DNA from: Omnitrophica bacterium GWA2_41_15 | GTDB lineage: Bacteria > Omnitrophota > Gorgyraeia > Gygaellales > UBA12090 | Direction: 5' to 3' | Length of the DNA stretch: 64,000 nucleotides | NCBI GenBank assembly: GCA_919902675.1 | Contig: CAKKRH010000032.1 | Span: 1,270-65,269 of the forward strand | Shown: in pieces, positions 1,527 to 63,325 of the stretch | How positions within the stretch are numbered: the stretch's first letter is position 1 | How the letters are laid out: each line of letters opens with the position of its first letter | Made by a program: the position numbers and the translations under genes | The notes under the pieces: generated by a model | Databases searched by the model: none | What the model was told of the DNA's origin: nothing | What the model saw: only the letters and a program-made list of their open reading frames with translations

Positions 1527-1575
1527 CCTTCAGCTATCAGCTATCGGCTGTCAGCTGAAAGCTGATAGCTGAAGG
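1527..1575. repeat. Hairpin with 15-bp perfect stem built from CAGCTAT/AGCTGA words, between rpsP and yajC
   Basis: ccttcagctatcagc (1527-1541) is the exact reverse complement of gctgatagctgaagg (1561-1575). The loop contains cagctg, and no T-run follows on either strand. Confidence 0.85.
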
Positions 1576-1593
1576 CTGATAGCTGTCAGTTGC

Positions 1594-1839
1594 TTATTTT
1601 CCCGCTTTTTTGATTAGGCTTTGTATGGTCTGGGATACCACCGCGCCTTTAGATTTCCAGTAATCAAAGCGCTCTCTTTTAATCTTGAAATTATCCTCTT
1701 TCTTAACCGGGTCATAACTGCCTAACTCCTCAATTATGGCGCCATCACGGCTTTTAGAATCATCTATCGCCGCGATCCTAAAATAAAATCTTTTCTTCCC
1801 GCCTTTACCGACTTTACGCATCCTAATTCCAACTGCCAT
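1594..1839 (-). CDS. rpsP: 30S ribosomal protein S16
   Basis: 81 aa, MAVGIRMRKVGKGGKKRFYFRIAAIDDSKSRDG..ELGSYDP, a typical S16 signature. Confidence 0.92.
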   Translation of the reverse strand: MAVGIRMRKVGKGGKKRFYFRIAAIDDSKSRDGAIIEELGSYDPVKKEDNFKIKRERFDYWKSKGAVVSQTIQSLIKKAGK

Positions 1840-1905
1840 CTCTTCCTCCCTTTGGTCGTCAGAGATTACAGATAACAGAGTACAAATTACAGTAGAAGAT
1901 AATTT

Positions 1906-1961
1906 TTCTCTGTTCTCTGTTTTCTGTTTTCTGTTCTCTGTTCTCTGTTTTCTGTTTTCGC
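1906..1961. repeat. Heptamer tandem array (TTCTCTG/TTTTCTG, about 8 units, 28-bp higher-order period)
   Basis: The sequence reads ttctctg ttctctg ttttctg ttttctg, repeated twice. It is flanked by the inverted pair cagataacagag (1871-1882) and ctctgttatctg (1961-1972). Confidence 0.85.
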
Positions 1962-1990
1962 TCTGTTATCTGTGAACTGTCAACTGTGAA

Positions 1991-3481
1991 CTAACCTATT
2001 GCCTCTAGCTGGGCCTTGGCTTTATTCAAGGTTTCCTGATATTCTCTTTGGGCTTTTGAATCTGCCACGATTCCGGCCCCGGCCTGGATATAAGCCGTAT
2101 CCTTATTAACCAGGATAGTGCGAATGGTAATACAGGTATCCAAATTTCCGGAAAAATCAAAATACCCCACTGCCCCGGCATAAGGGCCGCGGCGGTGATT
2201 CTCCAACTCGTCAATAATCTCCATTGCCCGGATTTTGGGACTGCCGCTGACCGTGCCGGCGGGAAAACAGGCCCTTAAAACATCATAGCTATCCATACTG
2301 TTTTTAAGCCTTCCCCGGACTTCACTGACTATATGCATAACATGGGAATATCTTTCAATACGCGTAAACTCGGTTATCTCAACCGAACCAAATCTACAAA
2401 CCCGGCCCAGGTCATTCCTGCCTAAATCAACCAACATTATATGCTCAGCCTTTTCCTTGGGATTATTCAGCAATTTCTTCTCTATCCGCCGGTCTTCTTC
2501 TTCAGTTTCACCGCGCGGCGAAGTTCCGGCTATAGGCCGGGTAGTAACCACGCCCTCTTCACAGCGCACCAGCATCTCCGGAGAAGAACCGGCCAAATGC
2601 AAGTCTTTAAACCTAAGATAAAACATATATGCCGAAGGATTGAGGCCGCGCAGTTTACGATAAATACCAAACGGACTCTGAACGGTTTTAGCGGATAAGA
2701 CCTGAGAAAGCACAACCTGGATTATATCACCGGAGCGGATATAATCCTTAGCCTTATTTACCATACCGGTAAAATCTTCTTTAGTAATAGCGAATTTTAT
2801 TTCTGCCCTGCGCCTATCCTTAGCCTCAGCCTTAACCTTAGCCTTCTCAATATTCGCGCCTAACTTAACCGCTATGGTTTCTATTTTTTTTAAAGCTTCC
2901 CGGTAAGCCTTAAGCGCGGTATTTTTTGAATTATTTTTAAGAAAGGCGCAGGAAACAATCTTAAGCTTACGGCTAAAATGATCAAACACAATCAGGGTAT
3001 CGCTGAGCATAAACAGGGCATCAGGAAAGCCCTTGTCGTCTAAATTCTTATCCGGGATATCCTCAAAAAAACGGATCATTCCGTAACCGAAATATCCCAC
3101 CAGGCCGCCGCAAAATCTTAAGCTTTTACAAGCGCCGCTCAAGCGGTATTTAGACATAAATTTCTTTAATTCCAAGAGCGGATCACCAAGATGAATAGTT
3201 TGAGTCAGCCCAAAACCGCCCGTGAAGTCAGCCTCGAATATCTCTAAAACCCTTCCTCCGATCTTCAACAGTGCCTGGGGCCGGCATCCGATAAAAGAAT
3301 ACCGGGCAATCTTCTCCTGGCCCTCCACGGATTCCAGAAGATATCCATAATCGCTTTCCCCACACACCTTCAAAAAAGCGGAAACCGGCGTCTCCAAATC
3401 CCCGTCTATCTCCCGATACACCGGTATCAGGTTGCCCTTTTTGGCAAATTTCAGAAAATCTTCTTTTGATGGAAAAAACAT
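1991..3481 (-). CDS. trpE: Anthranilate synthase component I (chorismate-binding enzyme)
   Basis: 496 aa with LVDLGRNDLGRV and GAGIVADS motifs, and an N-terminal IPVYREI..D.ETPVSAF region typical of TrpE. PabB cannot be fully excluded. Confidence 0.8.
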   Translation of the reverse strand: MFFPSKEDFLKFAKKGNLIPVYREIDGDLETPVSAFLKVCGESDYGYLLESVEGQEKIARYSFIGCRPQALLKIGGRVLEIFEADFTGGFGLTQTIHLGDPLLELKKFMSKYRLSGACKSLRFCGGLVGYFGYGMIRFFEDIPDKNLDDKGFPDALFMLSDTLIVFDHFSRKLKIVSCAFLKNNSKNTALKAYREALKKIETIAVKLGANIEKAKVKAEAKDRRRAEIKFAITKEDFTGMVNKAKDYIRSGDIIQVVLSQVLSAKTVQSPFGIYRKLRGLNPSAYMFYLRFKDLHLAGSSPEMLVRCEEGVVTTRPIAGTSPRGETEEEDRRIEKKLLNNPKEKAEHIMLVDLGRNDLGRVCRFGSVEITEFTRIERYSHVMHIVSEVRGRLKNSMDSYDVLRACFPAGTVSGSPKIRAMEIIDELENHRRGPYAGAVGYFDFSGNLDTCITIRTILVNKDTAYIQAGAGIVADSKAQREYQETLNKAKAQLEAIG

Positions 3482-3812: not shown

Positions 3813-4609
3813 CGCGCCGAAACTCCTTTTTTCCTTAAATAGCTTTTAACTTCTTTAATCGTCAGATCCTGATAGTGAAACAAAGACGCGGCCAGAGCCG
3901 CGTCCGCCATGCCTTCAGTCAAAACAGCGTAAAAATCTTCTTTTTTTCCGGCTCCTCCTGAAGCAATCACCGGAATACGGACCGCTCCGGTTATGGCTTT
4001 GGTCAAATCCAGGTCATAACCTTTCTTGGTGCCGTCAAAATCCATACTGGTTAACAGAATTTCACCCGCCCCGAGTTTTTCCGCTTTTTTCGCCCATTCA
4101 AACGCGTCTAACCCCGCGGCTGTTCTGCCGCCGTTGATATATACAGTCCACGGTCCACAGTCCACAGTCGACAGTCCTTTTCTGCGGACTATGGACCGTG
4201 GACTGTGGGCTAATTTCGCGTCAATTGCCACCACAATGCACTGGCTTCCGAACTTTAATGAGGCATCCCTAATCAGTTTAGGGTTTTTTACCGCGGCGGT
4301 ATTTATGGAAACCTTATCCGCTCCGGCATTAAGCAAATCCCTTATATCCCTCAAGCTGCTTATGCCGCCTCCCACCGTAAGTGGCATAAAGACATTTTCG
4401 GCAGTGCGCCTGACCACGTCTAAGATGATCTTTCTTTTTTCGGAACTGGCGGTAATATCCAGAAAAACCAGCTCATCCGCCCCTTCTTTCTCATATCTTT
4501 TGGCCGTCTCAACAGGATCACCGGCGTCTTTCAAGTTTAGAAAATTAACCCCTTTGACCACCCTGGCGTCCTTAACATCAAGGCAGGGGATAATTCTTTT
4601 GGTAAGCAT
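3809..4609 (-). CDS. hisF: Imidazole glycerol phosphate synthase cyclase subunit
   Basis: 266 aa: [18 protein letters not shown]...[13 protein letters not shown]...ASGGAG. It overlaps hisI by 4 nt. Confidence 0.92.
4144..4205. repeat. Imperfect inverted repeat of GTCCACA-type words inside the hisF CDS (in frame)
   Basis: cagtccacggtccacagtcc (4144-4163) pairs 19/20 with ggactatggaccgtggactg (4186-4205). It encodes ..[23 protein letters not shown].. in the variable segment after AIDAK. Confidence 0.8.
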
Positions 4610-5886: not shown

Positions 5887-5916
5887 GCCACGTTAGGTTA
5901 GACATATTTTAAGAAA

Positions 5917-5962
5917 CTCTAAACACTAAACCATAAATCCTAAACAAACCCAAAAGCTAAAA
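5917..5962. repeat. CTCTAAACACTAAAC...AAACCCAAAA word element (copy 1)
   Basis: ctctaaacactaaac at 5917-5931 is identical to 8471-8485, and both are followed by ..taaacaaacccaaaa. Confidence 0.75.
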
Positions 5963-6589: not shown

Positions 6590-7185
6590 AAACTTCCCTT
6601 AGTAGATAATATTCCTTTTATCCGCGGGTCAATGCTCACTGCCTCCCTTAAAGCCCTGGCCAGGGCCTTAAAAACCGCCTCAATGATATGGTGTAAATCC
6701 TCACCTGAAATTATCTCAATATGCAAGGTTAGGCCCGCGTTAACCGCCAAAGCCCGCAAAAACTGTTTTAAATAATTTAGGCTGTATTCTTTACTATGGA
6801 CTATGGACTGTGGACTGTGGACTGTAAGCTTTGAGTACGGCCTACCGCTCAAATCCAGGCTTACCTCAACCAGGGCCTCATCAATGGGCACCGAGGCAAA
6901 ACCAAAACGGCGAATACCCTGTTTATCCGCCAAGGCTTTTTTTATGGCTAGACCCAAAACTATTCCCACATCTTCGTTGGTATGATGAATATCCACATCC
7001 AGATCACCCCGGGCTTTAAGCGTTAAATCAAACAAGCCGTGCCTGGCGAAAAGATTAAGCATATGGTTTAAGAAGCCTATCGGGGTGTGGATACTAAAAC
7101 TGCCTCTGCCGTCTAAATTTATCTTGAGGCTAATCCTGGTTTCCGTTGTCTTCCTCTCAATTACGGCTTTTCTTTTATTATTCAT
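6586..7185 (-). CDS. hisB: Imidazoleglycerol-phosphate dehydratase
   Basis: 199 aa: RKTTETRISLKINLDG...GDLDVDIHHTNEDVGIVLG...GEDLHHIIEAVFKALARAL. Confidence 0.9.
   Translation of the reverse strand: MNNKRKAVIERKTTETRISLKINLDGRGSFSIHTPIGFLNHMLNLFARHGLFDLTLKARGDLDVDIHHTNEDVGIVLGLAIKKALADKQGIRRFGFASVPIDEALVEVSLDLSGRPYSKLTVHSPQSIVHSKEYSLNYLKQFLRALAVNAGLTLHIEIISGEDLHHIIEAVFKALARALREAVSIDPRIKGILSTKGSL
6795..6825. repeat. Heptamer array (TATGGAC x2, TGTGGAC x2, TGT) inside the hisB CDS (in frame)
   Basis: Read directly from the sequence. It encodes TVHSPQSIVHS and uses the same word (GTCCACA/TGTGGAC) as the hisF element. Confidence 0.85.
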
Positions 7186-7220
7186 AAGTAAAATTTTTGC
7201 GTCTTTGCGGTTCTGCGGTT

Positions 7221-8441: not shown

Positions 8442-8470
8442 CTAAGTTGGGTTAAATACCTTTTGTGAAG

Positions 8471-8562
8471 CTCTAAACACTAAACAAACCCAAAAACTAA
8501 AACCCAAAACATCTATTTTTGAGTTTTGTATTTATGGTTTTGAGTTTGTTTAGAATTTAGGG
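8471..8562. repeat. Long imperfect hairpin of CTAAAC/CCAAAA words (copy 2 of the 5917 family)
   Basis: Left arm ctctaaacactaaacaaacccaaaaactaaaacccaaaac, right arm gagttttgtatttatggttttgagtttgtttagaatttaggg, partially complementary. Located between alaS and hisD. Confidence 0.7.
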
Positions 8563-8583
8563 TTTCGGATTTAAGGTTTATGA

Positions 8584-11196
8584 TTATATCGCCTGACGGA
8601 TGATTTCCTTGAACTTCTCCAGGGCTTTATCCAGACCCGCGGGATTATCTCCTCCGGCCTGGGCCATGTTCGCCCGGCCTCCTCCGGAACCTTCAATTAA
8701 AAGGGCGGCTTCTTTAATTATTTTTGAAGCGTCCAGGCCCTTGTCTACTAAGTCAGCGGATAAGCTGACTGTCAGCCAGGCCTTTTGAGCTTGCGATGAA
8801 CCCAGGCAAAGGGCATAAGAAGAAACCCTGGATTTGATCAAATCGCTTAACTGGCGCAGTAGGCCTATATCCACATCCTGATACCGCGAGCAAATCAGGC
8901 TTGAACCTTTAATGACCTCAGACTTACCGGCCAATTCTACCGTATCGCGCTTAAACAGCTCCAGCCTTAAGCGGGAAAACTCCTTTTCTAAATTCCCTAA
9001 TTTTCTTAATTTATCCTCCAGTAAGGCTAAAACCTTATCCTCTGAAGATTGGGTTAAATCTATAAGCTTAGTAATAATTTCCTGGGCCTGCCTATAGGCC
9101 TCCCAGGCGGCCTTACCGGTTGAGGCCTCTATTCTACGCACCCCCTTAGCGATAGAACCTTCAGAAATTATCTTGAATAAACCGACCTGGGAGGAATTCT
9201 CCAGGTGGGTCCCTCCGCAAAGCTCTTTAGAAAAATCCTGAATATCCACCAGGCGCACTTTGTCCTCATATTTCTCATTAAACAAGGCAATAGCGCCTGA
9301 TTTCTTTGCCGTCTTCAGGCTCATCGCTCTTTGCGAAATTTCCAAACTTAACAAAATTTTCTCCTGGACTAAATCTTCAATCCGCTTCAGGTTTTGCGCG
9401 GATATTTTATCGGAATGAATAAAGTCGAAACGCAAACGATCAGGCTCAACTAAAGAGCCGGCCTGCTGGATATGAAAACCGAGAACCTGCCGAAGTGATG
9501 CCTGTAAAAGATGGGTCGCGGTATGGGCCCGGGCGATTGCCTTTCGCCTGGAGGAATCAACCTGACAATTAACCAAATCAGCGCTTTTTAGTTTCCCCGC
9601 GCTCAAGGTGCCGCGATGCAGATACACCTTTCCTTCTTTTTGGGTATCCTCTACCTCAAAAACGCTGTTTCCTTTTATGATTCTGCCTTGATCGCCGACC
9701 TGCCCTCCGGACTCCGCGTAAAAAGGGGTTTTATCCAAAACAATCTCGCAGGGTTCTCCCCGGCCAACCGACCGGACCACTTCACCATCCTTAATTATCT
9801 TTAAAATCCCGGCTTCTTTCAGAGAAAGCTTTTGATAGCCTGAAAATTTTGTTTCTTCCAATTTGGAAATCAAGGCGCTTGCGGTAAAAATCCCCCGGCT
9901 GATTTTACTGGATTTTTTGGAACGTTCTTTCTGTTTTTCTAAATCCTGATTAAATTCTGCTTCATTAATTTCAAAGCTATTCTCTTTTGCCCAGGCTTTG
10001 GTAATTTCAAAAGGTATGCCGTAAGTATCATAAAGCTTAAAAGCGGTATGCCCGCTAGACTCAAGGCCGGATGAAGCATCCTTAAATTCATTTTTCAAAA
10101 TCCTCGGGGCATCTTTTAAAACCGAGATAAAATTCTTCTCCTCAGTATTTATAACCTCGGCAATATTTTTTGCTTTAGCCTTTAACTCCGGATAAACCCC
10201 AAAGAAAATATCCGCCACAATCGGAGTTAGTTTATACAGAAACGGCTCTTTTATTCCCAGGGTATGTCCGTGAAACCCGGATTTACGGATAAGTTTACGG
10301 ACCACATATCCTCTTTCTTCATTAGAAGGAATGACCCCGTCGTAAATAGCGAAAACAATCGCTCGAATGTGGTCAGCGATGGCATTGATCAGCGGATAGC
10401 GGATAGCGGATAGCGGATAGCTAAGAATGGCTTTAATTATGGGCTTGAAGATATCAATTTCAAAGTTGCTTTTGACTCCCTGCAGGACTGAGGCCATTCG
10501 CTCTAAACCCATACCGGTATCTATGTTCTTATTGGGAAGCGGCTCTAGGACTCCTTTGGCAAGGCGGTTAAACTGGGTAAAGACCAGATTCCAAATCTCC
10601 ACAAACCGGCCGCAGGAGCAAGCCGGACCACAATCCGGCTTTCTACAGCCGGCATCAAGCCCATAATCGAAAAAAATCTCCGAGCACGGGCCGCACGGCC
10701 CGTTGGGGCCGTCTTCAATGGCATTAGCCGGCCAGAAATTATCTTTGGCTCCTAAGCGAACAATCCTCTCCTTGGGAAAATTGACCTTTTTGCTCCAAAT
10801 AGCGCGGGCCTCGGCATCATCCTGATACACCGAAACCCAGAGCACTTCAGGCTTAAGCTTTAACTCTTCGGTCAGAAATTCCCAGGCCCAGAGAATTGCC
10901 TCTTCTTTAAAGTAGGAGCCAAAAGAAAAATTACCCAGCATTTCAAAGAAAGTATGGTGACATGCGGTTACCCCCACCTTATCCAGGTCATCGGTTCTCA
11001 AACAACGTTGACAGCTGACTGCCCGGTTAAAATCTGAAACCTGCCCCATAAATTCATTCTTGAATTGGGCCATCCCAGCGGAAGTAAAAAGCACCGTAGG
11101 GTCATCCACGGGAACAAGCGAAGCTGAAGGTATAAGCTTATGCGCTCTTTTGGCGAAAAAATCAAGATATCTTTTACGTAATATATCCGTATTCAT
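8584..11196 (-). CDS. alaS: Alanine--tRNA ligase
   Basis: 870 aa with a class II core (FTSAGM, GNFSFGSYFK), an editing domain (HTATHLL...CGGTH) and a C-terminal DHHA1-like region (GGGRANMAQAGG). Confidence 0.95.
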   Translation of the reverse strand: MNTDILRKRYLDFFAKRAHKLIPSASLVPVDDPTVLFTSAGMAQFKNEFMGQVSDFNRAVSCQRCLRTDDLDKVGVTACHHTFFEMLGNFSFGSYFKEEAILWAWEFLTEELKLKPEVLWVSVYQDDAEARAIWSKKVNFPKERIVRLGAKDNFWPANAIEDGPNGPCGPCSEIFFDYGLDAGCRKPDCGPACSCGRFVEIWNLVFTQFNRLAKGVLEPLPNKNIDTGMGLERMASVLQGVKSNFEIDIFKPIIKAILSYPLSAIRYPLINAIADHIRAIVFAIYDGVIPSNEERGYVVRKLIRKSGFHGHTLGIKEPFLYKLTPIVADIFFGVYPELKAKAKNIAEVINTEEKNFISVLKDAPRILKNEFKDASSGLESSGHTAFKLYDTYGIPFEITKAWAKENSFEINEAEFNQDLEKQKERSKKSSKISRGIFTASALISKLEETKFSGYQKLSLKEAGILKIIKDGEVVRSVGRGEPCEIVLDKTPFYAESGGQVGDQGRIIKGNSVFEVEDTQKEGKVYLHRGTLSAGKLKSADLVNCQVDSSRRKAIARAHTATHLLQASLRQVLGFHIQQAGSLVEPDRLRFDFIHSDKISAQNLKRIEDLVQEKILLSLEISQRAMSLKTAKKSGAIALFNEKYEDKVRLVDIQDFSKELCGGTHLENSSQVGLFKIISEGSIAKGVRRIEASTGKAAWEAYRQAQEIITKLIDLTQSSEDKVLALLEDKLRKLGNLEKEFSRLRLELFKRDTVELAGKSEVIKGSSLICSRYQDVDIGLLRQLSDLIKSRVSSYALCLGSSQAQKAWLTVSLSADLVDKGLDASKIIKEAALLIEGSGGGRANMAQAGGDNPAGLDKALEKFKEIIRQAI
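10392..10421. repeat. Heptamer array (GCGGATA x4.3) inside the alaS CDS (in frame)
   Basis: The sequence reads gcggata gcggata gcggata gcggata gc. It encodes LSYPLSAIRYPLI just before the conserved IADHIR motif. Confidence 0.85.
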
Positions 11197-11317
11197 CTGT
11201 AATTAATGACCCCAGACTTTGTAAACGTCAAACAAGGAATTTTGGATCGCTATTCATTTATCTCTCTTAACCTAAACCTGAGCCTTAACCTTTACAATTA
11301 AAATAAGGGGCGTTTGA

Positions 11318-13449: not shown

Positions 13450-13515
13450 TTTTTGCTTCTGTTTTCAAAACCACCTCTTCACTCATAACTTATCACTTAT
13501 AACTTCTCCCCACAT

Positions 13516-14883: not shown

Positions 14884-16053
14884 ATGGATACGGACAAACC
14901 CAGGGATACCCAAGAGGAATTACAAAAGGTGCGCGGAGAGCTTTCCTTGCTTTATGAAATCTCCAATGCTATGCGCACTACCCTGAAATTAGATGAAATC
15001 CTCTATATTATCCTTACCGCGGTAACTGCCCATGTGGGCTTGGGCTTTAACCGGGCAATGCTTTTTTTAGTAAACGAAAAAGACGGTGTTTTAGAGGGAA
15101 AAATGGGTATCGGCCCGGATAGCGGCGAAGAGGCTAATCGCATCTGGACCTACCTAGAAAAGGAGAAAACAAATCTTGATAATTTAATCAGCAACTATAA
15201 AGTTTCGGGACATCTCGCTCACAGCCAATTTGACCAGATTGTGAAAGGCATCCGGCTTCCACTCAAAGAAGAAGAGGGCGGCATACTGGCAATGACCCTG
15301 CTTGACGGGATGCCCCTGCATATCACCCAGGAAACCATCCACACCCGTAAGCAAGACACCTTAATTAACATCCTCCGTCCAGAGGAATTCGTAACCGTTC
15401 CCCTCAAAGCCAAAGACAAGATTATCGGGGTCCTTTTCGCGGATAACCCCTATACCCATAAACCAATCACTAAAGACAATATCCGCATCCTGACTATGTT
15501 TGCCAACCAGGCCGGCCTGGCCATTGAAAATTCCAAGCTCTACGAACAAACCCTGATCAAAAGCCATACCGACTCCCTCACCTCGCTCTGGAATCACGGA
15601 TATTTTCAGTCCCGCCTGCAGGAAGAGATAAGCCTGGCTCAGAAAAATAAACAAAATTTAAGTATTATAATGGCTGATTTGGATAATTTTAAGGTCTACA
15701 ACGATACCTTGGGACACCAGGAAGGAGATCAGATACTTATTCAGATAGCCAGAATATTGAATGGCTCAGCGAGAAAACAAGATACGATTTACCGTTACGG
15801 AGGAGAAGAATTCGCGGTACTGCTACTTCAGACCACTAAACAGGAAGCCAGCGTTATTGCCGAGAAAATAAGGATATCTGTAGAGCAAAGCGATTTCCGC
15901 AGGCAAGAAATATTTCCCAACCGAAAACTTACCGTAAGCTTAGGAGTAGCCGCCTGCCCTGGAGACGGCGCGAGCAAAGATTCGCTTCTTGAATACGCCG
16001 ATAAAGCCCTCTACAGCGCTAAACACCAAGGCAAAAACCGCGTCTGCGGTTAA
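14884..16053 (+). CDS. GAF domain-containing diguanylate cyclase
   Basis: 389 aa with an N-terminal GAF-like region and a C-terminal GGDEF domain. It has an RKQD I-site five residues before the RYGGEEF active site. One of only two plus-strand genes. Confidence 0.88.
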   Translation: MDTDKPRDTQEELQKVRGELSLLYEISNAMRTTLKLDEILYIILTAVTAHVGLGFNRAMLFLVNEKDGVLEGKMGIGPDSGEEANRIWTYLEKEKTNLDNLISNYKVSGHLAHSQFDQIVKGIRLPLKEEEGGILAMTLLDGMPLHITQETIHTRKQDTLINILRPEEFVTVPLKAKDKIIGVLFADNPYTHKPITKDNIRILTMFANQAGLAIENSKLYEQTLIKSHTDSLTSLWNHGYFQSRLQEEISLAQKNKQNLSIIMADLDNFKVYNDTLGHQEGDQILIQIARILNGSARKQDTIYRYGGEEFAVLLLQTTKQEASVIAEKIRISVEQSDFRRQEIFPNRKLTVSLGVAACPGDGASKDSLLEYADKALYSAKHQGKNRVCG

Positions 16054-16103
16054 GACACAAAAAGCTCTTTTACCGCGTTATAGATTATTTTCTCGGGGAT
16101 ATT
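16050..16103. repeat. 54-bp direct repeat, left copy (duplicate of the aroB 3' end)
   Basis: ttaagacacaaaaagctcttttaccgcgttatagattattttctcggggatatt is identical to 18254-18307. It contains the GGDEF gene stop codon (16051-16053). Confidence 0.95.
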
Positions 16104-24164: not shown

Positions 24165-24173
24165 ATCATTATT

Positions 24174-46514: not shown

Positions 46515-46538
46515 GATTTTATTCCTCCTTTTTAAAAT

Positions 46539-50555: not shown

Positions 50556-53500
50556 TTATTTATCCTCCCCTTCCTCTTCCACTACCTCCTGAGCAGAAAC
50601 CTTAAACCTGCGCAAAGCGGTGCGCAATTGCTCGGCTAAGCCGGACAAGTTTTGCGCGGATGAGGTCATCTGCTGCATCGCTTGAGTCTGCTGTTGAATG
50701 GAAGTAGACATCTCGGATGAGCCTGTAGCTGCCTGCTCAGCAGTCAAAGCGATTTCCTCAATAGTCTTGGCTACCTGTTGCGCGCCTCCTGCCTGCGCGG
50801 TAGTGGCAGCGGAAACTTCCTGGGCTTTAGAAGTAATTTCCTGAGTGCCTACGCCAATCTGGCCTAAGATAGCCAGCGCCTGATTAACGATATCAATACT
50901 CTCGGAAACCTGCTGGGTTCCGGCAGTCATACCCGTAACCACCTCAGCGGTAGAATCAGTTATCGTGCTCACCATACCTTCAATTTGCACCGCGGCTTTT
51001 TTGGTCCCTTCAGCTAATTTTCTGATTTCATCAGCAACTACGGCAAAACCCCGGCCTGCCTCTCCGGCATGGGCGGCTTCAATAGCGGCGTTTAAGGCCA
51101 AAAGATTAGTCTGGTCAGCAATATCTTTGGTCGTACCGACGATTACCGCGATTTCCTTGGCGCGCTTATCTAAGTCTTTAACTGTAGTAGTATTGGCTTT
51201 AACAATATCATCTATGGTCTTCAATCTTCCGGCTGCCTGCTTGCCTGATTCCGTGCCTTTCTCTGCCAGTTTGGCTGCTTCCTGAGTAGCCTCAGCCGCT
51301 GCCTTGGAATTAGCCGCGCCTTGTTGTATAGACTTAGAAAGCTCAGCTACTACTTTGGTAGAGGTCTCTAATTTCTTAGACTGCTCCCTTGAGCCGGCAG
51401 CTATTTCTTGGGTGGTCTTGGCAACTTGGCCTAAGGCAGTATTTACCTGCCGGGAGGCATTAGATAATTGATTGGAAGAGCTAGCAACCTTGGTAGAGCT
51501 TTCCATAGCCAAGCGAATAGTTTTTCCTAAGTCATCAAAGGATTTGTTTAAGGCATCAGTCAAGGTCTTGATATCTCCTCTTGCCTCCAAGGCATATCTT
51601 TGTGAAATGTCTCCTTTGGAGAGGGCAAGGCTAAGCCGGATTACTTCCTGAACCGGTTTGGCGATAGAATCAATCAAGGTGTTCAAGGTGTCCACGATAT
51701 TTTTCCAACTGCCGCCAACGCCTTCCACTTTTGCCCGTTCGCTAAGCTTTCCTTCCACACCAGCTACCTGAGCCACTCGGGAAACTTCATTGGCTAAGCG
51801 GTTTAAATTATCCACCATGCTATTTAGTGTATCTTTTAACTGTAGAATCTCCCCTGCTGCTTCTACAGTTATCTTTTGAGTTAAGTCTCCCATAGCAATA
51901 GCTGTGCCAACCTTAGCAATGTTTCTCACCTGAGCAGTAAGGTTAGCCGCCATAGCATTGACCCTGTCAGTAAGGTCCTTCCATGTCCCGGCTACGCCCG
52001 GCACTGCTGCCTGTCCGCCGAGTTTTCCTTCCGTGCCTACTTCTTTGGCTACGCGGGTAACTTCTGCGGCAAAAGTATTTAATGAATCCACCATAGCATT
52101 GATCGTATTCTTAAGCTCTAAGATTTCACCCATTGCCTCTACGGTAATCTTCTGAGCCAGGTCCCCCTTGGCAACTGCGGTGGTTACTAAAGCAATGTTA
52201 CGCACCTGCGAGGTAAGGTTAGCCGCCATAGCATTAACCCTGTCAGTAAGGTCCTTCCATGTCCCGGCTACGCCCGGCACTGCTGCCTGTCCGCCGAGTT
52301 TTCCTTCCGTGCCTACTTCTTTGGCTACGCGGGTAACTTCTGCGGCAAAAGTATTTAGTGAATCCACCATTTTATTGATGGTATCTTTTAAGGCTAACAT
52401 CTCTCCCTTAACCTCTACAGTGATTTTTTGCGCCAGATCTCCGTTAGCAACTGCGGTAGTAACCTGAGCAATGTTACGCACCTGAGCAGTAAGATTTCCC
52501 GCCATAGCATTGACGTTATCCGTAAGGTCTTTCCATGTCCCGCCAACACCCGGCACTGCTGCCTGTCCGCCGAGTTTTCCTTCCGTGCCTACTTCCTTGG
52601 CCACGCGGGTAACTTCTGCGGCAAAAGTATTTAGTGAATCCACCATTTTATTGATGGTATCTTTTAAGGCTAACATCTCTCCCTTAACCTCTACAGTGAT
52701 TTTTTGCGCCAGATCTCCGTTAGCAACTGCGGTAGTAACCTGAGCAATGTTACGCACCTGAGCAGTAAGATTTCCCGCCATAGCATTGACGTTATCCGTA
52801 AGGTCTTTCCATGTCCCGCCAACACCCGGCACTGCTGCCTGTCCGCCGAGTTTTCCTTCCGTGCCTACTTCCTTGGCCACGCGGGTAACTTCTGCGGCAA
52901 AAGTATTTAGTGAATCCACCATTTTATTGATGGTATCTTTTAACTGTAGCACCTCTCCGGCAGCCTCAATGGTAATCTTTTGCGCCAGGTCTCCTTTGGC
53001 AACTGCGGTGGTTACTAGAGCAATGTTACGCACCTGCGAGGTAAGGTTAGCCGCCATAGCATTGACTCTATCGGTTAAATCTTTCCATAGACCGCCAACA
53101 CCCGGCACTGTTGCCTGGCCGCCTAACTTTCCATCCGTGCCTACTTCTTTGGCTACGCGGGTAACTTCTGCGCCAAAGGTGTTAAGTGAATCTACCATTT
53201 TATTAATCGTATTCTTCAACTCCAAGATTTCACCTTTCGCCTCAACCGTAATCTTCTGCGCCATATCTCCGTTAGCAACTGCGGTAGTAACCTGAGCGAT
53301 GTTACGCACCTGACTGGTTAAGTTTCCCGCCATAGCATTGACGTTATCCGTAAGGTCTTTCCATGTCCCGCCAACACCCGGCACTGCTGCCTGTCCGCCG
53401 AGTTTTCCTTCCGTGCCTACTTCCTTGGCCACGCGGGTAACTTCTGCGGCAAATAGGTTTAAACTATCCACCATCTTATTGATGGTCTCTTTTAACTGTA

Positions 53501-54524
53501 GCACCTCTCCGGCAGCCTCGATGGTAATCTTTTGCGCCAGGTCTCCCTTGGCAACTGCGGTAGTAACTAAAGCAATGTTGCGCACCTGTGCAGTAAGGTT
53601 AGCTGCCATAGCATTAACCCGGTCAGTAAGGTCCTTCCATGTCCCGGCTACGCCCGGCACTGCTGCCTGTCCGCCGAGTTTTCCTTCCGTGCCTACTTCC
53701 TTGGCCACGCGGGTAACCTCTGCGCCAAAAAGAGTAAGATTATCTACCATTTTATTGATTGTATTCTTTAGCTCCAGAATTTCACCTTTCGCCTCAACCG
53801 TAATCTTCTGCGCCAGATCTCCGTTAGCAACTGCGGTAGTAACCTGAGCGATGTTACGTACCTGACTGGTTAAGTTTGCTGCCATAGCATTAACGTTATC
53901 TGTAAGGTCCTTCCAAAGACCGGCTACTCTTTCTACCTTTGCCTGGCCGCCTAATTTTCCTTCTGTGCCTACCTCTTTGGCAATACGGGTAACTTCTGCG
54001 CCAAAAGTATTTAGTGAATCCACCATAGCATTAATGGTATTTTTAAGTTCAAGTATCTCGCCTCTTGCTTCCACGGTAATCTTCTGAGATAAATCTCCTT
54101 TGGCTACTGCAGTAGTAACCTGAGCGATATTACGCACCTGAGCGGTAAGGTTTGAAGCCATGGCATTGACGTTGTCAGTAAGATCCTTCCATGTCCCGGC
54201 CACACCCTGAACTGCTGCCTGGCCGCCGAGTTTACCTTCCGTGCCTACTTCTTTGGCCACGCGGGTAACCTCACCGCTAAAAGCTGTTAAGAGATCAACC
54301 ATACTGTTATAGGAATCCGCTAATTCGCCAAAGATATCTTCTCTTCCTGATTTTAACTTTTTAGTGAGATCGCCTTTTCTCACAGCTTCTAAGGCCTCTA
54401 ATAAATCTCTTAACTGTTTTTCTGACCCCTCGCTAAAGCCCTCTTCTCTTTCCAATGTTGCAACATCAGCCTCTGATTCGCCAAATAAAGCCTTCTTTGC
54501 CGCTTGTCTAATTGGCTTTGCCAT
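50556..54524 (-). CDS. Soluble methyl-accepting chemotaxis protein with poly-HAMP array
   Basis: 1322 aa with no hydrophobic TM segment. It has an N-terminal HAMP, ten tandem 92-aa units and a C-terminal MCP signalling domain ([24 protein letters not shown]). Confidence 0.9.
51525..54284. repeat. Ten tandem 276-bp (92-codon) units encoding paired HAMP domains
   Basis: The unit is [84 protein letters not shown]. Units 1-9 are highly similar and unit 10 is diverged. Confidence 0.9.
52327..52943. repeat. Perfect period-276 tandem duplication (2.2 units, 100% identity)
   Basis: 52327-52667 is identical to 52603-52943 base for base. The identical shadow ORFs 52428-52634 and 52704-52910 in the track confirm the 276-nt offset. 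Confidence 0.95.
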
Positions 54525-55378: not shown

Positions 55379-55447
55379 TTAATGGATCCTCAAATAAAAA
55401 AACCCAAGCTCTAATTATTTAGAAACTTGGGTTTAACCTTATATTTT

Positions 55448-55546
55448 CCCGTTTTTCCCGTAAAAAACGGGATCCCGACTTTGTCGGGAAAATCCCTCCG
55501 CTTTAATAATAAAGCGGAATGTTTTACTCTCTCTCTCTCTCTCTCT
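55448..55546. repeat. Three consecutive small hairpins followed by a (CT)10 microsatellite
   Basis: cccgttttt/aaaaacggg (55448-55471), tcccgac/gtcggga (55473-55489), tccgcttta/taaagcgga (55497-55518), then ctctctctctctctctctct (55527-55546). Confidence 0.85.
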
Positions 55547-55608
55547 GCTAAAGCCATTAGAATTATGGCATCTTCTTTCACTTATTGTTCCCCATTTTTA
55601 TGTATGGC

Positions 55609-55833
55609 CTATTTACCCGACAACTTACTACGAATCAGACGCAAGGTATAACCTTCAAGCATCATTGCTTCTATCTTCTTTAACGTCTCGGAAACCACCG
55701 CCTCATCGTACAACCTGACACCACCACCCTTTTTAACCACTGTAAGCAACCCAATAGTAGTATAGTAGTTTAACGTATGATAAGCAAGATTAAATTTTTT
55801 AACTATGTTTTTTGCGGAAATAGGTTTTCCCAT
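55609..55833 (-). CDS. Small MerR-type HTH protein
   Basis: 74 aa: ISAKNIVKKFNLAYHTLNYYTTIGLL...GGGVRLYDE. Confidence 0.55.
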   Translation of the reverse strand: MGKPISAKNIVKKFNLAYHTLNYYTTIGLLTVVKKGGGVRLYDEAVVSETLKKIEAMMLEGYTLRLIRSKLSGK

Positions 55834-56123
55834 TCTATAGAGTCTTTTTATCTAACTACCGCGCACTTGACCTTTCGACTGCCTAAAGTTAGAGTAATTA
55901 CTACAATTGTCTAATTTGTATTATTTATATCACATTTTAAATATTTGTCAAGAATATTTTCCTTTGTTGTTTTTTTAAACCGCAAAAACGTAAAATAGCC
56001 GTTAGAAGTAAATGTTCCGCGGAGACGCAGAAAAAAACTTATTGAATTTCCGCGCTTCAGCGGAGAGTATTTATCTTGATTCAACGTTTCGGCGGTTGCA
56101 AAACCGTAGAGGCGTAAAAAGAA

Positions 56124-56226
56124 TTTAAACCGCAAAAACGCAAAATGGAGCTTGATGAACGCGATTAATCAAAAAAATAAAAACCGAAAAACAAGCGTTT
56201 TATTTGCTTTTAGGTTTTTCGGTATT
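56124..56226. repeat. About 105-bp A-rich repeat element, copy 2
   Basis: tttaaaccgcaaaaacgcaaaatggagcttgatgaac..attaatcaaaaaaataaaaaccgaaaaac...tttgcttttaggtttttcggt. It aligns with 40027-40135. An extra half-site aaaccgcaaaaacgtaaaat occurs at about 55978. Confidence 0.75.
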
Positions 56227-56266
56227 TCGGTTTTTAGTTTTTCGATTCTATCTGATACTTCCTTAT

Positions 56267-58125: not shown

Positions 58126-58153
58126 GTAGGGGCTGTTCGCGAACAGCCCCTAC
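58126..58153. repeat. Perfect 28-bp palindrome GTAGGGGCTGTTCGCGAACAGCCCCTAC between lepB and pgsA
   Basis: The sequence is self-complementary as read and has no flanking T-run. Confidence 0.9.
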
Positions 58154-60644: not shown

Positions 60645-61342
60645 TTATATAAAATGTCAACGGTTCCTTCAATAGTCATCTTGGTGGTGTCTATGTAAAT
60701 CGCGTCTTTTGCCTGTTTCAGGGGGGCGCATTTGCGGCTGGAATCAATGGTGTCCCGGTTTTGCAGGTCTTTTCGCACATCCTCCCAGGAAATATCCTGG
60801 CCGTTTTCTTTTAACTCTTTATGCCGCCGGCGCACGCGCTCTTTGAAATCAGCATCTAAAAAAAATTTCTTATCCGCGTTAGGAAATACCGCGGTTCCGA
60901 TATCCCTTCCGTCTAAAACGCAAGAAGCCTTGGAACCCAGTTCCCGCTGGCGGATAAGCATCTCTTTTCTCACCCCCGGCACTTTGGCGGTATCTGAAAC
61001 AAAACTGCTGATATTCGGTTTTCTAATGTCCAAGGAAACATCCTCTCCGTCTAACAAAACCCGAATCGCGCCGTCAGATTTATTTTCTAAATCAATCCTG
61101 GTCTTTTTAGCCAGCCCGGTCAATTGCCGGCCTTGAGCAAAATCTAATCCCTGCCTGATTGCCTTTAGGGTTAAGGCCCGATACATTGCCCCGGTATCAA
61201 TATAAAGAAACCTCATCCGCTTGGCTAAAAGCTTAGCCACAGTTGACTTTCCCGCTCCAGCCGGTCCGTCAATAGCTATAATTATTTTCTTAGCCTTAAC
61301 TTTAATCTTAGAGGCCATTTCTTTTATCCCTGGATTTTTCAA
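60629..61342 (-). CDS. cmk: Cytidylate kinase
   Basis: IIAIDGPAGAGKST...YIDTGAMYRA. An alternative start is MASKIK at 61318. Confidence 0.9.
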   Translation of the reverse strand: MKNPGIKEMASKIKVKAKKIIIAIDGPAGAGKSTVAKLLAKRMRFLYIDTGAMYRALTLKAIRQGLDFAQGRQLTGLAKKTRIDLENKSDGAIRVLLDGEDVSLDIRKPNISSFVSDTAKVPGVRKEMLIRQRELGSKASCVLDGRDIGTAVFPNADKKFFLDADFKERVRRRHKELKENGQDISWEDVRKDLQNRDTIDSSRKCAPLKQAKDAIYIDTTKMTIEGTVDILYKWINP

Positions 61343-62138
61343 GATAGGCCTTTAAGGCGCCGTCATCGTTGTTTTTAATCAAAAGCTTCAACCCGCGGAG
61401 CGATTTTTCAAAGGTATTTATTGCCGCCAGCAGCTCCTTGCGGTTAGTCAGAAAGATATCCTTCCACAATAAGGGGTCGGATAAACCTATACGGGTGGTA
61501 TCTTTCAGCCCGCCGGCGCCGAATTTAAGATACTCGCTTTTTAAACAATCAATCAGGCTAAAAACAACAGCGTGGGGAAGATGGCTGGTAAAGGCCAAAA
61601 TACGGTCGTGGAGCGCGGAATTTAAAATCAGCGTCCTGGCGCCTAAAGCCTCCCAAAGCTTTCTCGCCCGGCTTAAATCCTGGGAATTATATTTCTTAGG
61701 CGGCACTAAAAGGCAAAGGGAATTCATAAAAAGGTCTGCCCGGGCATTCTCAGGGCCCTTCTTCTCCATTCCGGCTAAAGGATGACAGCCGATAAACCTG
61801 AGTTTGTGTTTCTCGGCGATTTTAATAATCGCGGACTTGGTTGAACCGGCATCAATTATTAAGCAATCTTCACCGGTGAGATTCTTTAGCTTGGGCAGGA
61901 TGTTGATTATCTCTTTAACCGGAGCGGATAAAACCACCAAATCCGCTTCCTTGAGATGGTCTAACCCTAAATATCCCTGATCAATAGCACCGGCTTTTAA
62001 AGCCTGGTTAATTGATTTTTGGCGATGGCCGATGCCGATTATTTCTTTGGCCAGGGACTTTTTCTTTAAAGCCAGCCCGAAAGAACCGCCGATTAAACCC
62101 ACGCCAATAATCGCGACTTTATTAAATAAACGCATCAC
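61308..62138 (-). CDS. tyrA: Prephenate dehydrogenase
   Basis: 276 aa: VAIIGVGLIGGSFGLALKK...D.GS.K...GCHPLAG. Confidence 0.85.
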   Translation of the reverse strand: MMRLFNKVAIIGVGLIGGSFGLALKKKSLAKEIIGIGHRQKSINQALKAGAIDQGYLGLDHLKEADLVVLSAPVKEIINILPKLKNLTGEDCLIIDAGSTKSAIIKIAEKHKLRFIGCHPLAGMEKKGPENARADLFMNSLCLLVPPKKYNSQDLSRARKLWEALGARTLILNSALHDRILAFTSHLPHAVVFSLIDCLKSEYLKFGAGGLKDTTRIGLSDPLLWKDIFLTNRKELLAAINTFEKSLRGLKLLIKNNDDGALKAYLEKSRDKRNGL

Positions 62139-62172
62139 TTATATCCGAATTTGGACAGCAACAACCAATTAC

Positions 62173-62190
62173 TAACCTCTAACCTCTAAC
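62173..62190. repeat. TAACCTC x2.5 word array between aroF and tyrA
   Basis: taacctc taacctc taac is the reverse complement of the GAGGTTA word in the 28554-28588 array. Confidence 0.75.
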
Positions 62191-63206
62191 TACAGCCTTC
62201 TTTCCACCGCCTGGGCCACTGCCCTCAAAGAAGGAACCATCTTTCCAAAGCCTTCAGGAGTCAAAGACTGGGCCCCGTCAGAAAGGGCATCTTCGGGATG
62301 GATATGCACCTCAATTATCAAGCCGTCCGAGCCGACGGCAAGGGCGGCCTTAGCCAGAGGTTCAACCAAATCCCTGCGGCCTGAGGCATGCGAAGGGTCA
62401 ATTATTATCGGTAAGTGGCTTAGGGCCTTGACCACCGGCACAGCGCTGATATCTAAGGTATTGCGGGTAGAATCCTCAAAGGTGCGGATACCCCGCTCGC
62501 ACAAAATCACATTCATATTCCCTCCGGCCAGGATATATTCCGCGGACATCAGCCACTCTTTGACCGTTGCCGAAAGCCCGCGCTTTAAAATTACCGGTTT
62601 TTTGGTTAAGCCCACTTCTTTTAGGAGGTTAAAATTTTGCATATTGCGCGCGCCTATCTGCAGGACATCGGCATAGCGAACCACCAGCTCCACATCCCGG
62701 GTATCCATTACCTCAGTTACCGTAGGCAGACCGAATTTATCTCCCGCCTCTTTCAGGTATTTTAACCCTTCTTCGCCTAAGCCTTGAAAATTATAGGGTG
62801 AGGTCCGGGGCTTAAAGGCCCCGCCTCTTAAGGCCTTGGCCCCGTGGGATTTGACTATTTTCGCGGTTTCATAAAGGCTGTTGTAGTTTTCCACAGCGCA
62901 AGGCCCGGCAATAATCACCAGCTCCGTGCCTCCGATTTTGACCCCTTTGCCTAAATCAATAACCGAATTTTCTTTTTTGAATTCCCGGGAAACTAACTTA
63001 TAGGGGGCCAAGACCGGAATTACTTTTTCTACTCCCGGAAAGGCCTCCAGCGGGGTTGAACGCAGGATATCCTCCGGCCCGATTACCCCGATGATAGTGC
63101 GCTCGGTCCCCTTAGACACATGCGGCTTAAGCCCCAGCTTAGTTACCCGCTCAACTATATGCTCAATCTCTTTTTCCGTGGTTTCTGGACGCAGAACTAT
63201 AATCAT
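62190..63206 (-). CDS. aroF: DAHP synthase (type I-beta, with N-terminal ferredoxin-like regulatory domain)
   Basis: 338 aa: ...IIAGPCAVE...LRGGAFKPRTSPY.FQGLG...IIDPSHA.G.R. Confidence 0.88.
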   Translation of the reverse strand: MIIVLRPETTEKEIEHIVERVTKLGLKPHVSKGTERTIIGVIGPEDILRSTPLEAFPGVEKVIPVLAPYKLVSREFKKENSVIDLGKGVKIGGTELVIIAGPCAVENYNSLYETAKIVKSHGAKALRGGAFKPRTSPYNFQGLGEEGLKYLKEAGDKFGLPTVTEVMDTRDVELVVRYADVLQIGARNMQNFNLLKEVGLTKKPVILKRGLSATVKEWLMSAEYILAGGNMNVILCERGIRTFEDSTRNTLDISAVPVVKALSHLPIIIDPSHASGRRDLVEPLAKAALAVGSDGLIIEVHIHPEDALSDGAQSLTPEGFGKMVPSLRAVAQAVERRL

Positions 63207-63325
63207 TTTCCCCTCGCTATATTTTGATCAAATACTAAGTGGTCAAAAACATAAAAATAGAAATAAATCTACTTTCTTCAATCCTTCAACTTCGCTCAGG
63301 ATTAATGGTGAGCGCGGTCGAACCA

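Follow-up and report, generated by a model that had tools for sequence, protein, structure and literature searches.

Small interspersed palindromes, among them repetitive extragenic palindromes (REPs), Rickettsia palindromic elements (RPEs), short tandemly repeated repetitive sequences (STRRs) and small dispersed repeats (SDRs), are common in bacteria, and their origin and spread are poorly understood. Here we analyze repeats that belong beside these in a 64,000-nucleotide stretch of DNA (contig CAKKRH010000032.1, positions 1,270 to 65,269; hereafter, the window) from Omnitrophica bacterium GWA2_41_15, a groundwater member of an uncultured phylum. In each of these word hairpins, degenerate copies of a word of 6–12 nt (7 nt in most cases) lead into a short loop, after which the reverse complement of the word is repeated. 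The elements are real, periodic and hairpin-forming, and their sequence families are reused in this genome and in other Omnitrophota. They are an unusual relative of the known junk-like repeats of bacteria, and no new regulatory code.

On the properties usually ascribed to them, the SDRs of cyanobacteria would be the closest behavioral match. Cyanobacteria are said to hold both heptameric STRRs and SDRs; the latter are near-identical units of 21–27 nt and reportedly nest in heptamer arrays, insert into genes, and replace sequence without altering its length. As we understand the definition of an SDR, the same behavior (nesting, in-gene copies, and replacement at constant length) occurs in the window, along with intergenic tandem heptamers, nested small hairpins and insertions into conserved genes. 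The apparent differences are that the host here is one of the Omnitrophota, that the array-loop-inverted-array design dominates, that arrays are mostly degenerate, and that a CCTGCC...GGCAGG palindrome is alone in being SDR-like.

REPs, together with bacterial interspersed mosaic elements (BIMEs) and REP doublets forming hairpins (REPINs), are likewise short, interspersed, imperfect palindromes that lie mostly between co-directional or convergent genes, form several families per genome, nest or cluster, occasionally occur within genes, and vary in presence among relatives (PMC3733652, PMC3116915). In contrast to REPs, the arms in the window are degenerate tandem arrays of a word, the elements span 50–170 nt (REPs, 20–40 nt), the number of units is highly variable, and no REP-associated tyrosine transposase (RAYT) lies nearby. 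Nor do the word hairpins bear a GTAG or CGTC tag: their ends read, e.g., CATGAAA...TTTCGTG or ATAAAGGTT..., and GTAG...CTAC occurs only in a separate palindrome at 58126–58153.

RPEs (Ogata et al. 2000), as outlined in PMC3184786 and PMC3733652, are families of 105–146 bp with a fixed consensus, a CGTC tag and conserved inserted peptides; they stand in frame within genes, where they add a tolerated peptide, and also between genes. A prior reading of this DNA from sequence alone (the sequence-only reading) had likened its repeats to REP/BIME and RPE systems, and the comparison is apt, in that in-frame copies were found here as for RPEs, i.e., in hisF, hisB, alaS and a PAS-domain kinase gene, with the fold apparently retained. 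Unlike RPEs as outlined in those papers, however, the elements are word arrays with no fixed consensus, and the same loop holds different words in related genomes; given this architecture and the Omnitrophota host, homology to the RPE families is unlikely.

MITEs (miniature inverted-repeat transposable elements) such as Nezha and Chunjie (PMC3184786, PMC10969869) resemble the elements of the window in size (100–170 nt), stable fold-back structure, filled and empty sites, and occasional fusions with open reading frames (ORFs). They differ in that three filled sites here have no flanking direct repeats, that internal heptamer periodicity is no MITE feature, that the whole element here is palindromic, and that no parent insertion sequence (IS) is known whose terminal inverted repeats match. 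The TAACTGA repeats of Beggiatoaceae, cyanobacteria and Bacteroidetes, and long simple-sequence repeats (LSSRs) in general, share the 7-nt period, the position a few nucleotides upstream of starts, the overlap with ORF ends, the patchy distribution, and the lack of a known mechanism (PMC4679880). That system relies on direct repeats of one dominant word, for which a single indirect repeat is reported (MacGregor 2015, PMC4679880), whereas the window has many words, mostly paired with their complements as hairpins, plus in-frame copies in protein loops. This hairpin architecture and the intragenic copies exceed the descriptions of heptanucleotide LSSRs, STRRs and TAACTGA repeats, and no report of such elements in Omnitrophota was found in the literature searched.

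The lineage offers an unusually clear natural experiment: gene order is conserved over 67–98% identity, filled and empty sites are clean, and the hisF, hisB and alaS loops are written in different heptamer words. How such repeats arise, copy and homogenize, and how essential proteins absorb them, thereby becomes testable.

Heptamer arrays and hairpins between genes

The sequence-only reading held that hairpins and arrays assembled from short words occupy almost every intergenic gap. All nine of the words that it listed are present, and 15 of the 16 gaps for which it gave coordinates contain a clear array or hairpin (Table 1), the gap at 30200 being weak (z = 0.1, with no match in Tandem Repeats Finder, TRF). 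The extent was overstated: about 20 of some 45 gaps of at least 25 nt are affected, and several apparent gaps turn out to contain small genes (rpsU-like, Trm112-like).

The dominant 7-nt period that had been reported is well founded. TRF recovered 21 period-7 arrays versus 0.9 per dinucleotide shuffle (i.e., about 20 times chance) and five period-14 arrays versus 0.25, and a second, independent detector returned 15 period-7 segments (529 bp; 0.25 expected), with only 0–5 for other periods from 4 to 12. Intergenic DNA matches itself at a lag of 7 nt with a frequency of 0.325, where the baseline is about 0.28, and echoes follow at lags of 14 and 21 nt; coding DNA gives no such signal. Period-7 segments are 18 times as dense between genes as in coding DNA, with five of the 15 lying inside ORFs. 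The 7-nt units are arranged head to tail, up to 19 per array, and are mainly non-coding, as in heptanucleotide LSSRs and STRRs. Heptanucleotides are, in the account of Mrazek 2007 given in PMC4679880, the commonest LSSR class in many prokaryotes and are attributed to polymerase slippage, such that the period alone requires no special mechanism.

Many of the gaps also fold strongly. When minimum free energies (MFEs) were compared with those of dinucleotide shuffles for the 34 gaps of 40–400 nt, 17 fell at z < -2 and 13 at z < -3, as against 2 and 0, respectively, among length-matched coding controls. The reuse of words at distant loci is confirmed as well: 30 pairs of gaps have an 11-mer in common (13 in shuffles), with many k-mers common per pair. 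Each word family has 2–5 copies in the 64 kb, namely CCAATAA (gaps at 20021, 24183 and 32673), AAACCNT (5887 and 8442), GATTACACAGAT (43590, 45397 and 46515), the 9-mer ACTCAATAA (31960 and 35736), AGGTTNA (11197, 14569 and 32673), AACCTCT (28549 and 62139), CAGCTAT (the gap at 1506 and the interior of the kinase gene) and ACAGTCC (inside hisF and hisB).

Several arrays retain traces of how their units are related. The 28-nt higher-order repeat of the array at 1840–1992 is perfect, with a distance of zero between units at lag 4. In the 18-unit array at 24165–24339, where the 3' arm of the element ends 9 nt before the start of the HIT gene, adjacent units differ by 1.24 mismatches and distant units by 2.99, the footprint of slippage or unequal exchange. 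The AGGTTNA copies at 11266–11292, 14632 and 32739 have the 5' boundary ATAAAGGTT in common, and the arrays at 28549 and 62170 encode the last codons and the stop codons of thiE and of the DAHP-synthase gene.

Table 1. Word arrays and word hairpins in the window (positions counted from its first nucleotide; z, MFE relative to dinucleotide shuffles)
Position	Strand	Element	Location	Remarks
1525–1577	-	CAGCTAT/AGCTGAT word hairpin	rpsP-yajC gap	period-7 segment; MFE -39 kcal/mol, z = -6.2; no T-run
1840–1992	-	TTCACAG/TTGACAG array plus (ACAGARA)n array with 28-nt higher-order repeat and partly complementary 3' arm	trpE-like-rpsP gap	TRF periods 7 and 28; z = -4.9
4148–4213	-	in-frame 66-nt hairpin (ACAGTCC arm, AGAAAAG loop, GGACTGT arm)	hisF	MFE -42 kcal/mol, z = -8.4
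5887–5962	-	AAACCNT-family array, 3'-arm type only	fills hisH-hisA junction	24 11-mers in common with gap 8442–8583
6792–6827	-	in-frame (ACAGTCC)x5 array, peptide TVHSPQSIVHS	hisB loop	period-7 segment; loop just 2 residues longer than in plant IGPD
7186–7220	-	three 8-nt units (AACCGCAG)	fills hisD-hisB junction	
8442–8583	-	AAACCNT / ANGGTTT word hairpin	fills alaS-hisD junction	z = -5.0
10389–10424	-	in-frame (GCTATCC)x4 array	alaS loop	TRF 100% match; variable segment, no net length change relative to solved AlaRS
11266–11292	-	AGGTTNA-family array	recX-alaS gap	TRF
13479–13505	-	AAGTTAT array	recA-htrA gap	TRF period 7/14; period-7 segment
14610–14655	-	AGGTTNA-family hairpin with T-run	recA leader	14-bp perfect stem
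20040–20200	-	CCAATAA/TTGGTTA-family palindrome with nested GC-rich hairpin		40 11-mers in common with 24183–24339
24165–24339	-	CCAATAA-family element, ~19-unit 5' array and 2-unit 3' arm		TRF 19.4 copies
28549–28584	-	AACCTCT array	thiE 3' tail and thiC leader	TRF; period-7 segment; reverse complement of 62170 array
31960–32072	-	9-nt word array (TTTATTGAG / ACTCAATAA)		TRF period 9, 5.4 copies
32696–32778	-	nested palindrome, AGGTTNA-family hairpin within CCAATAA-family outer arms		MFE -63, z = -7.9
35204–35273	-	GGTTTAT / AAACCAT word hairpin	accB-accC gap	12-bp perfect core; z = -4.1; no T-run
35736–35813	-	9-nt word hairpin	efp-accB gap	z = -5.2; TRF period 9
42854–42932	-	in-frame CAGCCAT / AGCTGAA hairpin	first PAS domain of 1146-aa hybrid kinase	period-7 segment; word family of the 1525 element
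43590–43738	-	GATTACACAGAT 12-nt word palindrome, 2 direct and 2 inverted copies		spacing 21–22 nt; z = -6.1
45397–45466	-	GATTACACAGAT-family copy and second hairpin		z = -3.8
46515–46613	-	GATTACACAGAT 12-nt word palindrome	upstream of cheA	z = -6.8
62139–62193	-	TTAGAGG array	overlaps DAHP-synthase stop	TRF 100% match; period-7 segment

The arrays are not products of assembly. Window DNA recurs in a 2.15-Mb nanopore contig (ENA ERZ1286166 contig_28; locus L001) at 99.76% identity, with homopolymer indels as the sole differences, and an Illumina contig from Hainich groundwater (L086) is virtually identical to the window except in a 276-bp protein-coding tandem repeat. An assembly artefact was rejected because the repeat arrays are identical, homopolymer errors aside, in these nanopore and Illumina assemblies of the same population. 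A cyanobacterial origin was also rejected: the HIP1 motif GCGATCGC occurs just twice in the window, and RecA and HisF, whose best matches are Candidatus Omnitrophota metagenome-assembled genomes at 72–94% identity, place the genome in the Omnitrophota.

Turnover at conserved gene junctions

Comparison with six syntenic Omnitrophota loci, found via HisF homologues, shows that entire elements occur in some genomes and are missing from others at gene junctions that are otherwise conserved, and that they change much faster than their flanks. HisF identity to the window is 94% in L123 (where nucleotide identity is 95–98%), 87% in L082, 82% in L124, 77% in L083, 70% in L084 and 67% in L085. Period-7 segments number four per 21 kb in each of L082–L085, which equals their density in the window, but they lie at other sites; 80 RecA loci from other taxa hold 25 such segments in a total of 1.25 Mb.

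The alaS-hisD junction measures 142 nt in the window and 5 nt (TAA-cttaa-ATG) in L082, with near-identical flanks, thus forming a 137-nt filled site and its empty counterpart; this junction is also tight in L084 and L124. Relative to L082, the window has 76 nt versus 1 nt between hisH and hisA, 35 nt versus 2 nt between hisD and hisB, and 121 nt versus a 4-nt overlap between recX and alaS; the htrA-recX spacing is 128 nt, versus an overlap in a relative. No direct repeat that could represent a target-site duplication, as expected of a MITE, was detected at the borders of the filled alaS-hisD, hisH-hisA and hisD-hisB junctions.

Other junctions are occupied in more than one genome. L124 holds a homologue of the 8-nt-unit element between hisD and hisB, and the rpsP-yajC junction of L082 contains a different element from that of the window. 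Between trpE and rpsP, both L123 (flanks 95–98% identical) and L082 have the TTCACAG/TTGACAG array alone, at 53–60 nt, so the additional ~100 nt of (ACAGARA)n and arm in the window is a recent expansion. Relatives also hold elements where the window has none, and members of the same families turn up at junctions that are not orthologous: L083 has CCAATAA-type palindromes at hisB-hisH and trpE-rpsP, L082 and L124 have them at rpsP-yajC, and L124 also has the 9-mer family at mfd-surA and the AGGTTNA family at surA-pdxA. Repeat-free versions of the same gaps in related genomes had been named in the sequence-only reading as evidence that would count against it. Such gaps do exist, but the relatives carry their own repeats at other gaps, a pattern that indicates turnover and mobility rather than artefact.

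Two further features of these loci concern repeats of the window. Runs of N in L123 (~3250–3350) and L084 (~8450–8550) coincide exactly with word hairpins or arrays of the window, which suggests that the repeats break short-read scaffolds. Perfect palindromes of the GTAG-tagged REP type (GTAGGG...CCCTAC) occur in the window at 58126–58153, in the first codons or leader of a pgsA-like gene, as well as in L082 (13037) and L124 (7009, 11387 and 17304), one of the L124 copies being nested within an AGGTTNA word hairpin.

Copies in frame within genes

The sequence-only reading overlooked copies that stand in frame in hisF, hisB, alaS and the PAS kinase gene (Table 1), where they occupy loops at the surface of essential proteins. 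The hisF insert adds 16 residues relative to solved HisF structures. In an AlphaFold2 model (predicted local distance difference test, pLDDT, 84; predicted template-modeling score, pTM, 0.85), residues 136–151 have a pLDDT below 50 and form an unstructured loop between two strands of a confident barrel, suggesting that the insert is tolerated as a loop and that the barrel fold is retained. An alignment of 34 HisF homologues shows the same loop to be hypervariable across the clade and absent in some members.

All seven hisF genes examined have an insert in this loop, always a multiple of 3 and 66–108 nt long, and it folds at z -3.5 to -8.4 in six of the seven genomes (z = -1.8 in L083); the hairpin is thus kept across 67–94% HisF protein identity. 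The word pairs are unrelated to one another: ACAGTCC/GGACTGT in the window, ATAGTCA/CGACTAT in L082 and L123, ATAGTCC/CGACTAC in L084, and ATGGCAT/ATAAGCC in L124. Between the window and L123, both arms differ compensatorily and in homogenized form (ACAG/CTGT vs. ATAG/CTAT; GTCC/GGAC vs. GTCG/CGAC), and the insert measures 66 nt in the former and 102 nt in the latter, where another small hairpin is nested in it, despite flanks that are 95–98% identical. In the hisF hairpin of L085, a CCTGCCTGCCGGACAGGCAGG palindrome (CCTGCC...GGCAGG type, L085 10464) is nested in the 3' arm.

The other genes present similar cases. The hisB loop is 54–57 nt in four genomes (the window, L082, L083 and L124), which among them use different words: (CACAGTC)5, (CGGCTGT/CAGCTCT)5, (TTTCAGC)5 and (GTTTACC)4. 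In the alaS loop, (GCTATCC)4 is identical in the window and L082, and L124 has (GACTATC)5. In the kinase, the PAS_9 match breaks off at position 87 of the 103 in the model, immediately ahead of the insert, which falls between PAS strands. The outcome is that of a selection filter acting on position, frame, stop codons and loop length. Searching for (DYRLSTI)n peptides yielded nothing but spurious short ORFs across arrays of other phyla, and no invaded proteins.

A still smaller repeat, the 20–21-nt palindrome CCTGCCTRCCGGCAGGCAGG (CCTGCC...GGCAGG), stands in frame in the cheA linker at 47829–47849 (peptide ALPAGR) and is intergenic at three sites in L082 (8464, 11194 and 17733); it behaves like a very small dispersed repeat.

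Dispersal of the CCAATAA family

The 31-nt sequence CACCAATTTCCAATAACCAAATAATAACCAAT, an aperiodic order of unit variants, is identical in the 24183 gap of the window and at a non-orthologous site in L083. An exact 21-mer taken from it occurs in 36 metagenome loci, representing 28 distinct copies; a phage origin was rejected, the 21-mer being absent from viral contigs. The copies are imperfect palindromes of 110–170 nt of the form CATGAAAATAACCAA...CACCAATTTCCAATAACCAAA...loop...TTTGGTTATTGTATCTTGGTTATTGGTTATTTCGTG, with arm complementarity of about 74%, and unit indels make their register unreliable in a family alignment or covariance model. The same asymmetric bulge, TTTCC opposite GATAC, recurs in at least 10 non-orthologous copies. 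Because local homogenization of the arms would erase it, the shared bulge must be inherited, and whole elements have therefore been copied between sites. Genes of many kinds flank the copies (rpsP, purA, aspS, an ABC ATPase and others), and no protein family, i.e., no candidate enzyme, recurs beside non-orthologous copies.

Transcripts, stems and candidate enzymes

As the sequence-only reading had recognized, the hairpins do not look like ordinary terminators: they lie between co-directional housekeeping genes, with one in the recA leader, and 12 of the 13 strong word hairpins have no T-run. Intrinsic termination was rejected for those 12; the recA-leader hairpin (14642–14610) alone passes a terminator scan of the sense strand. 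It is situated downstream of the best promoter match of the region (TTGACT-17-TATAAT, 14718–14690, 11/12 of the sigma-70 consensus), and this copy may have been co-opted as an attenuator. A scan of the window against Rfam at the gathering score matched only a tRNA-Gly and detected no known structured RNA family at the repeats.

To compare pairing at the RNA and DNA levels, the 5' arm of each element was aligned to its reverse-complemented 3' arm, with no recourse to a folding program. Stem mismatches of the G·T type (G·U in the sense transcript) and the A·C type (G·U in the antisense transcript) number 20 and 20 in the window and 46 and 69 in the CCAATAA family. We accordingly rejected selection on sense-strand RNA: with no excess of G·U over A·C, there is no sign that pairing is kept for the sense transcript, and the symmetry is such as a DNA-level process would leave.

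The dedicated generating or maintenance enzyme that had been proposed did not materialize. No RAYT or transposase was found in the window, in the six syntenic loci (~20 kb each; ~150 kb of relatives), or within 3 kb or less of the 28 CCAATAA-family copies; the window holds no integrase either, and no IS elements were seen in any locus read.

Similar designs in other phyla

The array-plus-complement design also appears among the RecA control loci, in L018, L030, L055, L069 and L071 (Acidobacteria/Terriglobia), L022 (Fibrobacter) and L040 (Desulfuromonadales), e.g., as AGTCGTTGGTCGCTGGTCG...CGACCAGCGACCAACG, and the phenomenon is thus not limited to Omnitrophota. Arrays of (GACTATC)n occur in Roseiflexus, Microcoleus, Richelia and Aeromonas. 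The window words CCACAGT and TTGGTTA are one mismatch from what we take to be the words of STRR1/3 and STRR2. When all window words are set against STRR1–3, with the words so assumed, and TAACTGA, 16 close pairs (one mismatch or fewer) are obtained, as against 7.8 +/- 2.9 for random heptamers, which hints at a heptamer vocabulary that may be shared or convergent across phyla.

Discussion

The elements of this genome provide unusually clear evidence of turnover, of in-frame invasion of essential genes, and of in-place rewriting in an uncultured phylum. The account that we favor, and to which we would give an even chance of being correct, is that they are non-autonomous palindromic simple-sequence elements, propagated by the copying of units and subsequently remodeled by slippage and from arm to arm. 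Whole units would be copied to new sites, probably via single-stranded hairpin DNA, leaving no target-site duplication; since no enzyme was seen and no target duplication was found, single-strand hairpin chemistry or recombination fits better than DDE transposition. After arrival, each arm would grow, shrink and homogenize by replication slippage, a process that would favor the 7-nt period and yield higher-order blocks of 14 and 28 nt, and the arms would be kept complementary by intrastrand template switching, one arm being copied from the other, as the compensatory differences between the hisF hairpins of the window and L123 suggest. Template switching at quasi-palindromes is known from studies of bacterial mutagenesis. 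Selection would act only as a filter: copies would survive in the space from a stop codon to the following ribosome-binding site (RBS), or in protein loops if they contain no stop, have a length divisible by 3, and approximate the native loop length. The RNA hairpins of polycistronic transcripts would be mainly a by-product.

Several observations weigh against this account. Neither an enzyme nor a donor copy was identified in the 64 kb of the window and ~150 kb of relatives, and there is no copy-number polymorphism among three assemblies of one population, so slippage is not rapid over such a span of time. About 75% of the CCAATAA copies are co-directional with their flanking genes (C/A-rich arm first), and a subset of the copies in L087–L122 has the conserved tail TTTCGTG-N8-12-ATATTAYA-G-rich RBS-start, which may be an outward-facing promoter or a leader carried by the element; the orientation bias and the -10-like tail hint at a function or at strand-specific insertion. 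The persistence of the hisF hairpin over deep divergence could stem from selection rather than from template switching, and the different words in the same loop could result from overwriting by an ectopic copy rather than from drift.

The alternatives to be considered are not fully exclusive of one another. A classical explanation, which we view as somewhat unlikely, is that these are non-autonomous REP/REPIN- or MITE-like elements mobilized by a distant trans-acting transposase (a RAYT or an HUH enzyme of the IS200/IS605 type), with the heptamers as its binding sites. The filled and empty sites in relatives, the nesting of elements in one another, and, for the CCAATAA family, the defined ends (CATGAAA...TTTCGTG) and the inherited bulge in at least 20 genomic contexts are all as this would predict. 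Small GTAG-tagged REP-type palindromes coexist in these genomes, and GTAG REPs are on record in the Planctomycetes-Verrucomicrobia-Chlamydiae (PVC) superphylum, as are intragenic REPs (PMC3733652). Yet no transposase or RAYT appears in the window, in the syntenic relatives, or beside the family copies, three filled sites have no target-site duplication, the word hairpins have no GTAG or CGTC tag and a unit number that is highly variable within an element, and each of many unrelated word families would need its own recognition. At the opposite extreme, it is very improbable that the repeats are purely local, slippage-born LSSRs without dispersal, in which common words are convergent because some heptamers expand more easily. 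The predominance of heptanucleotides among LSSRs in many prokaryotes (as given for Mrazek 2007 in PMC4679880), the same design in Acidobacteria and other phyla, the (GACTATC)n arrays of Roseiflexus, cyanobacteria and Aeromonas, and the excess of close word pairs with cyanobacterial and Beggiatoa words are compatible with local origins; but these would not account for a 31-nt aperiodic unit order that is identical at non-orthologous sites in two genomes, for one asymmetric bulge in at least 10 copies of different contexts, or for whole elements of 75–137 nt at junctions that are 1–5 nt long in relatives.

It is also unlikely that the elements are functional cis-elements of transcripts or promoters, i.e., hairpins that stabilize or process mRNA, terminators or attenuators independent of a U-tract, or arrays of sites for an RNA- or DNA-binding regulator just upstream of starts. 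There is precedent for such a role in the TAACTGA repeats of Beggiatoaceae, the heptamers of which have been suggested to act in translation (MacGregor 2015, PMC4679880), and very stable hairpins between co-transcribed genes, the T-run of the recA-leader copy, which lies downstream of a strong promoter match, the 75% orientation bias, the copies that end 9–45 nt before start codons (a subset with the conserved -10-like tail), and the hisF hairpin kept over 67–94% identity would each be in keeping with it. However, orthologous junctions of close relatives are without elements and show no compensating change, the words are many and unrelated, and the same designs stand in frame inside proteins; moreover, there is neither a G·U excess on the sense strand nor a match in Rfam, 12 of the 13 strong hairpins have no T-run, and a good sigma-70 -10 box at proper spacing is found in just 6 of 24 CCAATAA copies. 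Beyond the unit copying and arm remodeling that we favor lies a bolder and doubtful proposition, that of an undescribed mode of DNA mobility in which an end-less word palindrome spreads by hairpin-templated copy-conversion into existing hairpins or arrays, overwriting them in place at constant length, even in essential genes. Such a mode might be common to these Omnitrophota and perhaps to Acidobacteria and cyanobacteria, in which near-identical heptamer words are in use, possibly with a dedicated enzyme or a peculiarity of replication or repair that measures 7 nt.

There are practical consequences as well: short-read assemblies appear to break at the elements, ORF calls are inflated by them, and annotated proteins of an uncultured phylum acquire array-coded peptides.

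Additional features of the window

The window has a G+C content of 45%, and nearly all of its genes are on the minus strand. They are housekeeping genes: recA-htrA-recX-alaS, the his operon, rpsP, yajC-secDF, thiamine genes, pfk, accBC, efp, aro genes and a che cluster. The tRNA-Gly(CCC), present as a single copy at 27203–27274, is flanked by thiC and by a gene for an M23/LysM peptidase, and it overlaps long same-strand ORF calls.

Several repeats of other kinds are present. The 276-bp tandem repeat that distinguishes the Illumina contig has 8.6 copies (51909–54269) and lies inside a HAMP-repeat chemoreceptor of 1322 aa; the version in L086 is 1230 aa, with one unit fewer, by either real polymorphism or assembly collapse. 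An exact 54-bp direct repeat (16050–16103 and 18254–18307) flanks a 2.15-kb stretch of low G+C (38%) with small HTH/XRE-type genes, which looks like an island integrated in the 3' end of a DHQ-synthase-like gene with an att-like duplication; no integrase was seen there. A long fold-back element of higher G+C (z about -8) is present twice, at 21179–21513 and 33713–33844, in copies that are 97% identical over 163 bp; it has no short-word build and looks like a separate MITE-like family. Lastly, a repeat of ~100 nt common to 39781–40148 and 55379–56266 consists of a terminator-like hairpin followed by motifs of the TTTTGCGTTTTAGCGGTTTAAA type, and each of the two regions precedes a small gene, rpsU-like in one case and MerR-like in the other.

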